Part shown: piece by piece, positions 34,701 to 35,754 of the stretch
How the letters are laid out: each line of letters begins with the position of its first letter
Numbering within the stretch: the stretch's first letter is position 1
Source: an uncultured delta proteobacterium
GTDB taxonomy: Bacteria; Desulfobacterota; Desulfobaccia; Desulfobaccales; 0-14-0-80-60-11
NCBI GenBank assembly: GCA_963812015.1
Contig: CAWETI010000002.1
Location: 1,472,001 to 1,536,000 of the forward strand
Length of the DNA: 64,000 nt
Direction: 5' to 3'
Program-made: the position numbers

Positions 34701-35754
34701 GTCCCCAAAAACGGGGTGTGTGTGTCAGGGTCTATACCACCACGCCTAAAAAACCCAACTCGGCCTTGCGCAAGGTGGCCCGGGTGCGGCTCACCAACGG
34801 CATCGAGGTGACCACTTACATCCCCGGGGTCGGCCACAACCTCCAGGAGCACTCAGTAGTGCTCATCCGGGGGGGCCGGGTAAAAGACTTGCCCGGGGTG
34901 CGCTACCATGTGGTCCGGGGCACCCTGGATGCGTCAGGGGTTCAGGATCGCCGGCAAGGACGGTCCAAGTACGGGGCCAAGCGGCCTAAATAAAGACAGT
35001 TTTCGGTTTCCGGTTTTCGGTAAAAGCACAAGACACGACAGAAAACAGAAACCGAAAGATATATTGAGAGATCGGGATTGGCGGACGGTTTTTATCTCAG
35101 AAAACCGGAAACCGAAAACCGAAAACCGAGGTAGAAAATGCCCAGAAAAGGCGGAGTGGTCAAGCGGCCTGTTCCTCAAGACCTGAAATACAACGACGTC
35201 ATGGTGAGCCGGTTCATCAACGGCTTGATGGAGCGGGGCAAGAAGAGCACGGCCCAACGCATCCTGTATAACGCCATGGAACTCGTGGGTCAGCGGGGCA
35301 ACGATGACCCCCTGAAGCTGTTCCATCAGGCGGTGGAAAACGTGAAGCCTTTGATCGAGGTGAAATCCCGTCGGGTAGGCGGCGCCACCTATCAGGTCCC
35401 CGTGGAAGTGCGGGCCGACCGCCGGGTTTCCCTGGCCATCCGCTGGCTGATCAATTACTCCAAGGCCAGGAACGAAAAGTCCATGGAGGCCAAGCTGGCC
35501 GCGGAGCTGCTGGACGCGGCCAACAACCGGGGCACCTCCATTAAGAAACGTGAAGACACGCATAAGATGGCTGAAGCCAACAAGGCCTTCGCCCACTATA
35601 GATGGTAAACTAATTTGCCTCGACAGACCCCGCTCAACCGGGTACGGAATATTGGGTTTATGGCCCACATCGACGCCGGTAAGACCACTACCACGGAACG
35701 CATCCTCTTCTACACGGGGGTGACGCACCGCTTGGGAGAGGTGCATGACGGCCA

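Follow-up and report, generated by a model that had tools for sequence, protein, structure and literature searches.

What are the inverted arrays of the heptamer ACCGAAA that enclose the spacer between the ribosomal protein genes rpsL and rpsG, and how have they come to lie at this and at many other gene ends of the same genome? The spacer is part of the window, a stretch of 64,000 nucleotides of contig C2 from an uncultured delta proteobacterium, to which all positions given below without a contig name refer. An earlier note on this DNA had interpreted such arrays as a dispersed, MITE-like family of intergenic RNA elements, retained by the host because their stems set mRNA processing and their A-rich arms serve as leaders for translation.

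Anatomy of the Element in the rpsL-rpsG Spacer

The features of the rpsL-rpsG spacer and of the other heptamer-bearing spacers in the window are listed in Table 1. The left arm begins 7 nt past the rpsL stop codon. The right arm, whose positions 35104-35131 read ACCGGAAACCGAAAACCGAAAACCGAGG, ends in the unit ACCGAGG, which provides the Shine-Dalgarno sequence GAGG (35128-35131) located 6 nt before the rpsG ATG (35138). The arms pair over about 20-23 bp, forming a long terminal stem, and the fold of the spacer with its arms paired (-44.7 kcal/mol, z -4.07) was equalled by none of 200 dinucleotide shuffles. Three matches to the ACCGAAA 21-mer (at most 2 mismatches) are present in the window and none in 100 dinucleotide shuffles of it. 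No Rfam match was found over positions 30000-40000 at E values up to 1, and CCGAGGUAGAAAAUG, instead of the sense-strand U-run of an intrinsic terminator, follows the right arm. The outer-flank variants GACGGT or GAAGAGGGT adjoin about 12 of the 34 arms identified in the genome as well as the gene-bearing copy described below (counted by eye from a printout of the flanks), and a loop similar to the small GAGAGATCGGGATTGGCGGACGGTTTTTATCTC hairpin is found in the orthologous spacers of five genomes of the same genus (L009-L013).

Table 1. Heptamer arrays, hairpins, and adjoining features in the window.
Feature	Position	Strand	Description	Basis
Hairpin between rplK and rplA, another family	24131..24199	+	(CAGGGGT)x4 left, (CTGACCC)x4 right	
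rpsL (ribosomal protein S12)	34622..34993	+	stop TAA 34991-34993	ORF list; PF00164, E 1e-40
AGACAGT, outer flank of left arm	34994..35000	+		oriented flanks of arms
Left (5') arm	35001..35021	+	TTTCGGT x3, 1 mismatch, G+U-rich; reads TTTCGGTTTCCGGTTTTCGGT	
Inner flank AAAAGCAC	35022..35029	+	TAAAAGC immediately precedes the IVP ATG in the IVP-bearing copy	
Short internal A-rich run ACAGAAAACAGAAACCGAAAG	35038..35058	+	alternative partner for left arm, also picked up on its inner side by the partner scan; partly paired in MFE fold	
Small hairpin within loop (GAGAGATCGGGATTGGCGGACGGTTTTTATCTC)	35066..35098	+		fold; spacer comparison
Right (3') arm	35100..35131	+	GAAAACC x4.3 = ACCGAAA units, A+C-rich	sequence
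rpsG (ribosomal protein S7)	35138..35608	+		ORF list; PF00177, E 2.4e-64
Hairpin between rpsJ and rplC	39310..39391	+	(CAGGGGT)x4 left, (ACTGACT)x4.6 right	
Single (AAAGTTC)x3 array	57517..57545	+	15 nt after stop of unnamed ORF (57145-57501)	

Distribution and Orientation of ACCGAAA Arrays

Our scan for arrays of at least three units, with at most one mismatch per unit, has identified 34 ACCGAAA arrays genome-wide (17 on C2 and 17 on C3), compared with 33 reported earlier at the same threshold. All five of the array pairs reported earlier were found again, one of them enclosing a gene and four (including rpsL-rpsG) gene-less, and about 24 arms are single. Scored against independently made gene calls, 20 of the 34 arrays read ACCGAAA in the sense direction just before or over a start codon, 13 read UUUCGGU after a stop codon (10 of these at 4-9 nt), and one is internal, which agrees closely with the earlier count of 20, 12, and 1. 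A partner of at least two units within 500 nt is present on the inner side of 12 of the 34 arrays and on the outer side of none, and 23 of the 24 unpaired arrays lie with their outer end closer to a gene than their inner end. One single arm (C2:1323682) is a pair that has lost its right arm, so at least one such case exists. The scan and the folds bear out the description of a dispersed, MITE-like family of hairpin-forming intergenic elements with stems of 21-25 bp; target-site duplications are not visible at any of the 34 arms. The ACCGAAA 21-mer (at most 1 mismatch), which the earlier note found in 17 of 25 genomes, is present in 33 of the 41 related genomes of our sample, and its reversed control is absent from 40 of the 41.

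The uniform orientation of these arrays (32 of 33 in the earlier count) had been offered as evidence for a role at the mRNA level. It is instead a geometric identity combined with the fixed polarity of the inverted repeat. A T-rich arm beside its left-hand gene is "after a stop" when that gene is on the plus strand and "before a start" when it is on the minus strand, and the rule therefore says nothing about the RNA strand. The feature that departs from chance is position, each arm lying with its outer end against the end of a gene, start or stop alike.

These observations also bear on the view that the arrays are plain simple-sequence repeats produced by 7-nt polymerase slippage, with pairing and position as side effects of short spacers. 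Heptamers are the commonest class of long simple-sequence repeats in many bacteria and slippage has been proposed for them (Mrazek, 2007, as summarised in PMC4679880), and array copy number does differ between the relatives examined here. However, slippage leaves unexplained the inverted partners found on the inner side only, the flanks common to arms outside the arrays, the fixed polarity, the association with IVP genes described below, and the spread of a single 21-mer to 33 of the 41 genomes, and in many arrays four bases (CAGT or ACTG) stay constant as a core while the other three vary, a pattern unlike homogenising slippage. We give this explanation almost no credence.

Other Heptamer Families in the Genome

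The genome contains 156 arrays of period 7 (111 intergenic, 22 at gene edges, and 23 genic), whereas periods 8 and 9 account for 34 and 29, respectively. The commonest family, AAAACCG (ACCGAAA in another phase), accounts for 37 arrays, the runner-up for 10, and it is the AAAACCG family that has a resident IVP. ACCGAAA is thus only the commonest among many heptamer families of the same design. The earlier note contained neither this point nor the identification of the enclosed gene as an IVP gene.

The G-rich strand lies after stops (coding) or before starts (non-coding) in 33 of the 34 ACCGAAA arrays and in 56 of 72 skewed period-7 arrays (binomial p 2e-6). Arrays lie at a median of 7 nt from a preceding stop and of 19 nt from a following start, and the outer end of the skewed arrays lies at a median of 0.065 of the free spacer (KS p 5e-17). 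Two further examples from the window are found in ribosomal protein operons. In the rplK-rplA spacer, the left arm directly follows the rplK stop (24128-24130) and the right arm ends 24 nt before the rplA ATG (24224), with folds of -44.6 kcal/mol (z -2.3) on the sense and -55.9 kcal/mol (z -4.4) on the antisense strand. In the rpsJ-rplC spacer, where the left arm begins 2 nt after the rpsJ stop (39305-39307) and the right arm runs into a GGAG before the rplC ATG (39401), the arms belong to two different heptamer families and pair only partially (sense -29.7 kcal/mol, z -2.0; antisense -22.3 kcal/mol).

Two other candidates were considered. A TTAGCAG/CTAACTG pair on contigs C4 and C5 was rejected as a 23S rRNA insert, Rfam having returned only tRNAs and the pair being located between protein genes. 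A palindrome GGGTGGGCA...GCCCACC was noticed next to five arms, and a strict pattern search found only one copy of it.

Arrays of this kind could in principle be DNA-level sites, at which the heptamers bind a nucleoid or regulatory protein (IHF/HU, as suggested for Geobacter) or form non-B DNA (G-quadruplexes or cruciforms, as suggested for GGGAATC). The strand symmetry of the hairpins and the four G-tracts carried by the CAGGGGT arms of the window are consistent with such a role, as is the low density of arrays in divergent spacers, which bear promoters (21 arrays expected, 8 observed, p 0.005). A similar scarcity is described by Rehm et al. (2015; PMC4692102), and the paired heptamers of Geobacter metallireducens have been annotated as regulator sites (Aklujkar et al., 2009; PMC2700814). 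However, TTTCGGT/ACCGAAA has no G-tract, and a quadruplex therefore cannot be the common property of the class; a period of 7 bp places successive sites on different faces of B-DNA (an established geometry); and the heptamer varies between loci and, at the same site, between species, which makes a single sequence-specific regulator less likely. We consider a DNA-level function very unlikely.

Persistence in Related Genomes and a Possible RNA-Level Role

The rpsL-rpsG spacers of related genomes contain period-7 arrays in 18 of 22 members of the same family as scored by script, and in two more as judged by eye. None of eight genomes of the sister family has arrays in this spacer, which is 32-47 nt long in that group and, though empty of arrays, too diverged to define the ends of the element. 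At two other loci, all nine same-genus spacers that were recovered hold arrays, often of another heptamer. Arrays thus persist family-wide at the same spacers while their heptamer changes, which is odd for purely selfish insertions and may point to selection by the host. In some cases the two arms of a pair lack complementarity (rpsJ-rplC in the window and the rpsL-rpsG spacers of genomes L002 and L003), indicating that the hairpin is not always kept.

The reading of the earlier note, in which the element is a host-selected RNA whose stem sets intercistronic mRNA processing and whose A-rich right arm is a Shine-Dalgarno-independent leader for translation, draws on this persistence at orthologous operon spacers of the genus and family despite sequence turnover, and on the housekeeping nature of the junctions concerned (viz. 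rpsL-rpsG, rplK-rplA, rpsJ-rplC, gatC-gatA, and liv-like and opp-like permease genes). It is also favoured by the folds of the rpsL-rpsG spacer, which reach z <= -2 in 13 of 22 same-family genomes and in none of eight sister-family genomes, by three relatives in which the right arm reaches the ATG directly, without a Shine-Dalgarno sequence, and by final units that are often themselves a Shine-Dalgarno sequence (ACCGAGG or ACAGAGG). TAACTGA repeats directly upstream of starts in Beggiatoaceae have been taken as translational signals (MacGregor, 2015; PMC4679880).

Direct comparisons of the two strands, however, show no sense-strand signature. When 63 array spacers were compared with 120 spacers sampled from 1278 other co-directional spacers, the sense strand folded better than the antisense strand in 38 vs. 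23 array spacers and in 71 vs. 48 controls, so that no sense-strand bias was present, and array spacers were not more structured per nt than the others (-0.331 vs. -0.325 kcal/mol). The arm alignments of 43 spacers contain 54 G.U and 62 A.C oppositions and hence no sense-strand signature, in a test of low power because for each spacer the aligner picks the best inverted repeat, which may be other than the heptamer arms. At two of the window's three loci the antisense strand folds as well or better, viz. rpsL-rpsG, where the strands are equal (-41.4 and -41.3 kcal/mol), and rplK-rplA. Nine of the 22 same-family rpsL-rpsG spacers fold no better than shuffles, and the sister family does with short, array-free spacers. 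The lack of a Shine-Dalgarno sequence claimed for downstream genes does not amount to a significant depletion: 11 of 24 array-preceded genes have one compared with 59% genome-wide (Fisher p 0.21), as judged by a gene caller that itself chooses starts by Shine-Dalgarno motifs. The transcript data consist of metatranscriptome contigs only (four sets compared at 90% likeness, best share 0.21), short pieces mostly from relatives that cannot show RNA ends. None of these contigs spans the rpsL-rpsG spacer, and a few joints skip from 34993 to 35138 (three contigs) or from 35026 to 35103 (one contig). On this evidence, we regard host selection for an RNA function as doubtful. Further conceivable readings are a stem that juxtaposes stop and start codons for translational coupling and roles for Csp, S1, Hfq, Rho, or RNase E.

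The IVP Gene and Its Flanking Heptamers

One of the five ACCGAAA pairs (C2:1391922/1392367) encloses an ORF of 122 aa (GC 0.41) that matches the profile PF05635 (23S_rRNA_IVP, for the 23S rRNA intervening-sequence protein, IVP) with an E value of 5.3e-41 and is the sole PF05635 match in the genome. This full copy (C2:1391917-1392403) consists, in order, of the outer flank GACGGT, (TTTCGGT)3-5, the leader TAAAAGC-ATG, the IVP gene, and (ACCGAAA)3-5. The closest solved structure of the enclosed protein is 2GSC (XCC0516 of Xanthomonas campestris, 5 chains; E 4e-24), and the copy thus encodes an IVP four-helix-bundle protein and no known transposase. In a profile search of the genome, no PF05635 ORF was found in the window copy or in the other three gene-less pairs.

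The association of IVP genes with heptamer arrays extends to other genomes. PF05635 is present in 37 of the 41 related genomes, and among 30 IVP loci of these relatives period-7 arrays flank the gene on both sides at 23 loci and on one side or more at 29. Across phyla, 78 IVP loci with full flanks have period-7 arrays on both sides in 26 cases and on any side in 53, whereas the corresponding numbers for the control periods are 0 and 3 (period 6), 2 and 7 (period 8), and 1 and 2 (period 9). At these cross-phylum loci, the upstream arrays are predominantly GT-rich (27 vs. 8) and the downstream arrays AC-rich (31 vs. 13).

The identity of the IVP also co-varies with its flanking heptamer, being 71% for the same heptamer, 65% at a heptamer distance of 1, and about 50% at distances of at least 2 (Spearman rho -0.47, reached by none of 2000 label permutations). 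Matches to the ACCGAAA 21-mer are about ten times as numerous in genomes whose intact IVP is 63% or more identical to that of this genome (median 28.5, n = 18) as in the others (median 3, n = 23; Mann-Whitney p 5e-6), and the difference is seen both within the genus (31 vs. 12, p 0.017) and in the sister family (14 vs. 2.5, p 0.019). These genomes are related and not independent, and both the co-variation and the association of counts could therefore reflect plain co-descent.

A Probable Origin as IVS-Type Elements

We consider it likely that an IVS-type hairpin element, of the kind that carries S23p/IVP (PF05635) in 23S rRNA, has the ACCGAAA/TTTCGGT arrays as the inverted arms at its two ends, and we read the array copies as mostly gene-less elements and decayed single arms. 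The element has a fixed polarity, with the G+U-rich arm first and the A+C-rich arm second on either strand, from which the "after stop/before start" rule follows. Upon transcription of the operon, the stem of 21-28 bp would be cut by RNase III as IVS stems are; such cutting is plausible by analogy to the IVS of Coxiella, and an rnc gene is present in the genome. By separating the cistrons, the cut would turn the A/C-rich arm into a 5' leader of the downstream gene, and insertions between a stop codon and a ribosome-binding site would thus be tolerated. The cognate IVP may maintain or mobilise the copies. We know of no transposase for heptamer-armed elements.

Against the IVS reading, only one of about 22 ACCGAAA loci has an IVP gene, and neither a target-site duplication nor an empty site in a close strain was seen. 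The loops of the gene-less copies have only about 8 nt (TAAAAGCA) in common with the full copy, too little to establish their descent by internal deletion. None of the copies checked is inserted in a 23S rRNA helix, the window copy lying between rpsL and rpsG and the others between protein genes.

A more specific extension, which we think unlikely, is that the IVP homopentamer, a four-helix-bundle ring related to the Avd protein of diversity-generating retroelements, recognises its own flanking array with one unit per subunit and acts in trans to maintain or copy hairpins that have this heptamer but no gene. If true, such recognition would account for the 7-nt period and the usual 3-5 copies, and the dozens of bacterial heptamer families would represent a co-evolving protein-nucleic-acid code that joins rRNA intervening sequences to gene-end heptamer repeats.

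Comparison with Known Systems

Gene-end heptamer repeats were reported several times from 2007 to 2015 (viz. in Xanthomonas, Nostoc, Beggiatoaceae, and Geobacter), with neither an origin nor a role assigned to them. The heptamer-armed hairpins of this genome are of a kind thus already described elsewhere in bacteria. The earlier statement that they had not been described was too strong, the same design and position rule having been published for Xanthomonas and Nostoc (Rehm et al., 2015; PMC4692102), for TAACTGA in Beggiatoaceae (PMC4679880), and in the form of paired heptamer sites for G. metallireducens (PMC2700814).

The GGGAATC/GGGGAYT repeats of Xanthomonas and Nostoc are mostly intergenic tandem 7-nt units in at least 2 copies, with 4 preferred, which form 70-75 convergent (inverted) pairs per genome, retain the same gene neighbours in sister species while varying in length and sequence, and seldom lie between divergent genes (Rehm et al., 2015; PMC4692102). 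They share with the present arrays the intergenic tandem heptamers, the inverted pairs, and the gene-end position rule. They differ in having four G-tracts able to form a G-quadruplex, whereas TTTCGGT, with no run of three G, can form none; runs of this kind are present in the CAGGGGT arms at 24131 and 39310. IVS and S23p do not occur in that paper, whereas one ACCGAAA pair encloses an IVP gene; one cross-phylum IVP locus of our set (L160) is flanked by GGGAATC-type arrays.

The TAACTGA repeats of marine Beggiatoaceae, cyanobacteria, and Bacteroidetes occur in 2-6 copies directly upstream of starts in the forward sense, often without a Shine-Dalgarno sequence, and also in ribosomal protein operons (MacGregor, 2015; PMC4679880). 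In another phase TAACTGA reads ACTGATA, which has the same ACNG-plus-3 pattern as ACCGAAA, ACTGACT, and ACTGACA of this genome. Unlike the paired ACCGAAA arrays, TAACTGA forms almost exclusively direct repeats, with only one indirect repeat reported, and a link to hairpins, IVS, or S23 is not discussed in that paper. In G. metallireducens, sets of five tandem heptamers (consensus MTYCTGA) form eight pairs, with the two members of a pair on opposite strands of intergenic spacers such as proB-proA, and a separate GGACCGG family of four heptamers has 49 copies (Aklujkar et al., 2009; PMC2700814). The paired heptamers are termed "global regulator sites" and taken as IHF/HU binding sites, with neither an IVP link nor a position rule in the main-text passages concerned (PMC2700814).

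Like MITEs and REP/REPIN elements, the ACCGAAA elements are short, dispersed, hairpin-forming, and intergenic, with many non-coding copies and a rare gene-bearing copy. In contrast to MITEs, their arms are tandem microsatellites and not unique inverted repeats, and the only gene-bearing copy encodes no known transposase; target-site duplications were not seen at the 34 arms. In contrast to REP/REPIN, which have palindromic units and a RAYT link, the arms are direct tandem repeats that are not self-complementary, and no RAYT gene is known to be associated with them, although no search was aimed at one. The cyanobacterial STRR heptamers are likewise heptanucleotide tandem repeats dispersed in intergenic DNA.

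In the IVS of Coxiella, RNase III cuts a terminal stem of 28 bp at its middle; the element contains an S23p ORF and, in the 5' arm before the S23p ATG, tandem GACAGAT heptamers of strain-variable copy number, and it is regarded as selfish (Warrier et al., 2016; PMC4990558). The terminal inverted repeats, the PF05635-type ORF, and the 5'-arm heptamers before the ATG are common to this IVS and the full ACCGAAA copy. IVSs of the Coxiella type reside within 23S rRNA helices (PMC4990558), whereas the ACCGAAA copies lie between protein genes and are mostly ORF-less. A general link between IVS/IVP and heptamer repeats was not found in the literature searched, where heptamers within the arm of an IVS are mentioned for Coxiella only.

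To these systems, the ACCGAAA family adds a case that, being free of G-tracts, excludes quadruplexes as the trait common to all; the genome adds an IVP gene resident inside one pair; and the genome and its relatives add figures that link the type of IVP with the heptamer beside it and with how many gene-less arrays a genome has. In annotation, the hairpins may serve to mark likely RNase III processing points in core operons, by analogy to IVS stems, and they account for start codons called too far upstream. For the heptamer repeats already described in Xanthomonas, Nostoc, Beggiatoaceae, and Geobacter, a testable proposal is that gene-end heptamer repeats are the arms of IVS-type elements.

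Genomic Distribution and Polarity of the Arrays

The arrays of the heptamer ACCGAAA and its complement TTTCGGT are the arms of a family of hairpin elements of the intervening sequence (IVS) type, with a single copy that bears a gene, four pairs that lack one and many solitary arms, located between the stops and the ribosome-binding sites of housekeeping operons (viz. at the rpsL-rpsG, liv-like and opp-like permease, and gatC-gatA junctions, and upstream of ffh and of a DEAD-box helicase gene). A script scan (at least 3 units, at most 1 mismatch per unit) has identified 34 arrays in the genome, in good agreement with the 33 of the earlier note. 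Its orientation counts also proved correct, as our own approximate gene calls (3310 genes, codon-likelihood model) place 20 of the 34 arrays as sense ACCGAAA just 5' of or overlapping a start, 13 as UUUCGGU 3' of a stop (10 of them at 4-9 nt) and one internally. The same note read the arrays as elements with a role in the mRNA. A T-rich array is scored as "after stop" when its left neighbor is on the plus strand and as "before start" when that gene is on the minus strand, and an inverted pair has its T-rich arm first on either strand. Hence, the rule reduces to a fixed polarity of the element with its outer ends (those away from the partner arm) abutting genes; it is geometric, reads the same from both strands and says nothing on which strand matters. 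The outer end is the end nearer a gene in 23 of 24 unpaired ACCGAAA arrays, and the polarity is obeyed by 56 of the 72 compositionally skewed period-7 arrays (p 2e-6), whose outer ends have a median relative position of 0.065 within the free spacer (KS p 5e-17). An equivalent positional rule is in print for GGGAATC heptamers (Rehm et al., PMC4692102).

ACCGAAA is one heptamer family of many in this genome. A period scan has identified 156 period-7 arrays (111 intergenic, 22 at gene edges, and 23 genic), compared with 34 and 29 for periods 8 and 9, respectively, and the families include AAAACCG (37 arrays), AAAGTTC (10), ACTACTG (8), ACCACTG (6), AACTGAC (6), and the CAGGGGT and AGCTGAC types. 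Other repeats were also observed. Tandem 8-nt arrays precede three ribosomal-protein-cluster starts by 15-17 nt and, because AAGG occurs in each unit, may serve as leaders with stacked Shine-Dalgarno-like motifs; among the period-8 repeats, the AAAAGGCG family is the most frequent (11 arrays). Five ACCGAAA arms have a REP-like palindrome on their inner side, at a distance of 60-100 nt, with several copies of similar form in the enlarged spacer of one relative (L044); this is a putative family, a strict pattern recovering 1 copy only. The first unit of a TTAGCAG arm contains the upstream gene's stop codon, so that the array provides this stop. The two copies of this arm lie in the same region in opposite orientation on contigs C4 and C5 and are probably an assembly duplicate (stated contamination of the assembly, 5.7%).

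Table. Features of the heptamer elements and neighboring repeats (window positions unless a contig is named)
Feature	Position	Remarks
rpsL (S12)	34622-34993	Pfam-confirmed
AGACAGT-(TTTCGGT)3	34994-35021	left end, rpsL-rpsG
GAGWRATCGGGRTTGGC...GGTTTTY	35066-35098	small loop hairpin
(ACCGAAA)4	35100-35131	right end, rpsL-rpsG
rpsG (S7)	35138-35608	Pfam-confirmed
(CAGGGGT)4...(CTGACCC)4	24131-24199	fills rplK-rplA spacer, first base directly after stop
(CAGGGGT)4...(ACTGACT)4.6	39310-39391	fills rpsJ-rplC spacer, GGAG at end
(CGCAAAGG)x2.5-3.4	23663-23689, 40974-40993, 47691-47711	8-nt arrays; starts include rplK at 23705
GGGTGGGCAC...GCCCACC-like palindrome	C2:534473, 1088397, 1091891, 1323682, 1569255	arms with palindrome in inner flanks
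TTAGCAG arm	C4:4336-4524 (locus L079), C5:7435-7614	
IVP-enclosing pair	C2:1391922/1392367	PF05635, E 5.3e-41
CCCACAGGG...CCCTGTGGG, then TTTTT	C2:1391853-1391916	terminator-like hairpin directly 5' of IVP-bearing copy
RVT_1 genes	C3:740486-741148 (-), C2:479358-479996 (+)	neither adjoins the IVP gene
CAGTNNN/ACTGNNN arms in three relatives	C3:644189-644361	right arm directly abuts ATG
Spacer with solo left arm	C2:1323674-1323868	right arm by ATG also present in four relatives
PF05635 clusters in G027	C1:3064838-3086650	sister-family genome

The rpsL-rpsG Spacer and its Relatives

The rpsL-rpsG spacer (144 nt) ends in a right-arm unit, ACCGAGG, which supplies the Shine-Dalgarno of rpsG 6 nt 5' of its ATG. 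The 21-mer (at most 2 mismatches) has 3 matches in the window and none in 100 shuffles. The arms are paired in the minimum-energy fold (-44.7 kcal/mol), and the concern that earlier shuffles were mononucleotide only is answered by a z of -4.07 against 200 dinucleotide-preserving shuffles. Rfam gave no match at this spacer. The small hairpin in the loop is common to five same-genus genomes (L009-L013), and the loops differ in species outside this group; this hairpin is a candidate for the S7 autoregulatory site, which the earlier note places in the rpsL-rpsG spacer of E. coli.

The 21-mer (at most 1 mismatch) is present in 33 of 41 related genomes (other same-genus, 17/17; family, 22/24; sister family, 10/14; further families, 0/2), and the reversed 21-mer has no match in 40 of the 41. 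At rpsL-rpsG, the script found period-7 arrays in 18 of 22 same-family genomes, two more being core-conserved by eye, and none in eight sister-family spacers of 32-47 nt. The heptamer itself varies between species, left arms including TTTCGGT, GTGATCA, GGGNTCA, GAGTTTC, and GGCAGTT and right arms ACCGAAA, ACAGAAA, ACGGTAA, ACAGCAA, ACTGRCA, and AACTYRA; folding reaches z of -2 or lower in 13 of the 22 same-family spacers and not in 9. Two further loci carry arrays in 9 of 9 recovered same-genus spacers, and the solo arm at one locus (Table) is a decayed pair, since its right arm is present in four relatives. Composite or nested elements, viz. arms of two heptamer families within one rpsL-rpsG spacer (L019, from genome G018), two tandem elements adjoining one IVP gene (L074), and repeated arm blocks flanking one IVP gene on either side (L053, L063), suggest that existing elements, or the sites next to them, are where new copies arrive.

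Association with the IVP Gene

The gene-bearing copy encloses the only PF05635 gene of the genome, which encodes a 23S rRNA intervening-sequence protein (IVP) whose nearest solved structure is 2GSC of Xanthomonas campestris, cited by Warrier et al. (PMC4990558) as a homopentameric toroid. PF05635 is found in 37 of 41 relatives, and of 30 IVP loci fetched from them, 29 are flanked by a period-7 array on one side or more, including 23 that are flanked on both. IVP identity is 71, 65, and ~50% at heptamer distances of 0, 1, and 2 or more, a correlation whose observed value was reached by 0 of 2000 permutations. A scan of named genomes has identified 599 IVP relatives across many phyla, the closest in Desulfobaccia and Desulfobacterales MAGs; the four closest all have TTTCGGT/ACCGAAA-type arms, three of them on both sides. 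Among 78 cross-phyla loci with full flanks, period-7 arrays occur on both sides in 26 and on any side in 53, compared with 0 and 3 for period 6, 2 and 7 for period 8, and 1 and 2 for period 9. The median number of ACCGAAA matches per genome is 28.5 with an intact cognate IVP and 3 without, a difference that persists when the genus or the sister family is taken alone, although p-values on these counts overstate because the compared genomes are kin.

The IVP-bearing copy lies 19 nt 5' of the next gene's start, which has GGAG. The IVP also matches PF22296, the family of the Avd protein that partners DGR reverse transcriptases, below the family cut-off (E 1.4e-8), and this relationship makes the two RVT_1 genes of the genome relevant. 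The sister-family genome G027 contains 19 PF05635 matches and 0 ACCGAAA 21-mer matches. Many of the former are grouped in two clusters, in which the copies are nearly identical and interrupted by in-frame TAG or TAA stops, as if another IVP type had been amplified locally.

Tests for a Role in RNA

None of the tests for a role at the RNA level gave a significant positive result. When whole spacers are folded, sense is favored over antisense in 38 of 61 differing array spacers and in 71 of 119 control spacers, stability is -0.331 vs. -0.325 kcal/mol per nt in array and non-array spacers, and transition mismatches in the arm alignments comprise 54 G.U and 62 A.C. The sense and antisense folds are equal at rpsL-rpsG, and antisense is better at rplK-rplA. 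Array-preceded genes show no significant lack of a Shine-Dalgarno, as 11 of 24 have one vs. 59% overall (p 0.21). The public RNA runs, consisting of contigs only, are uninformative on this role. By analogy, it is plausible that RNase III, for which the genome has an rnc gene, processes the elements and that the A/C-rich arm acts as a leader.

Comparison with Known Heptamer and IVS Systems

In Coxiella, the IVS is described as having a 28-bp terminal stem, cleaved mid-stem by RNase III, and tandem GACAGAT heptamers 5' of the S23p ATG whose number varies by strain (PMC4990558). Xanthomonas genomes contain 70-75 convergent heptamer pairs each, kept between the same genes while sequence and length turn over, and rare between divergent genes (Rehm et al., PMC4692102), as are the arrays here (8 observed vs. 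21 expected per base pair). TAACTGA arrays just 5' of starts (MacGregor, PMC4679880) and paired heptamer sites in Geobacter metallireducens (Aklujkar et al., PMC2700814) have also been reported. The main texts of Rehm et al. and MacGregor contain no mention of IVS or S23, and no general tie of intergenic heptamer repeats to IVP genes was found in the literature searched. The element described here is of an already known kind, to which our analyses add the ACCGAAA family, the absence of G-tracts, and a quantitative tie to the IVP.
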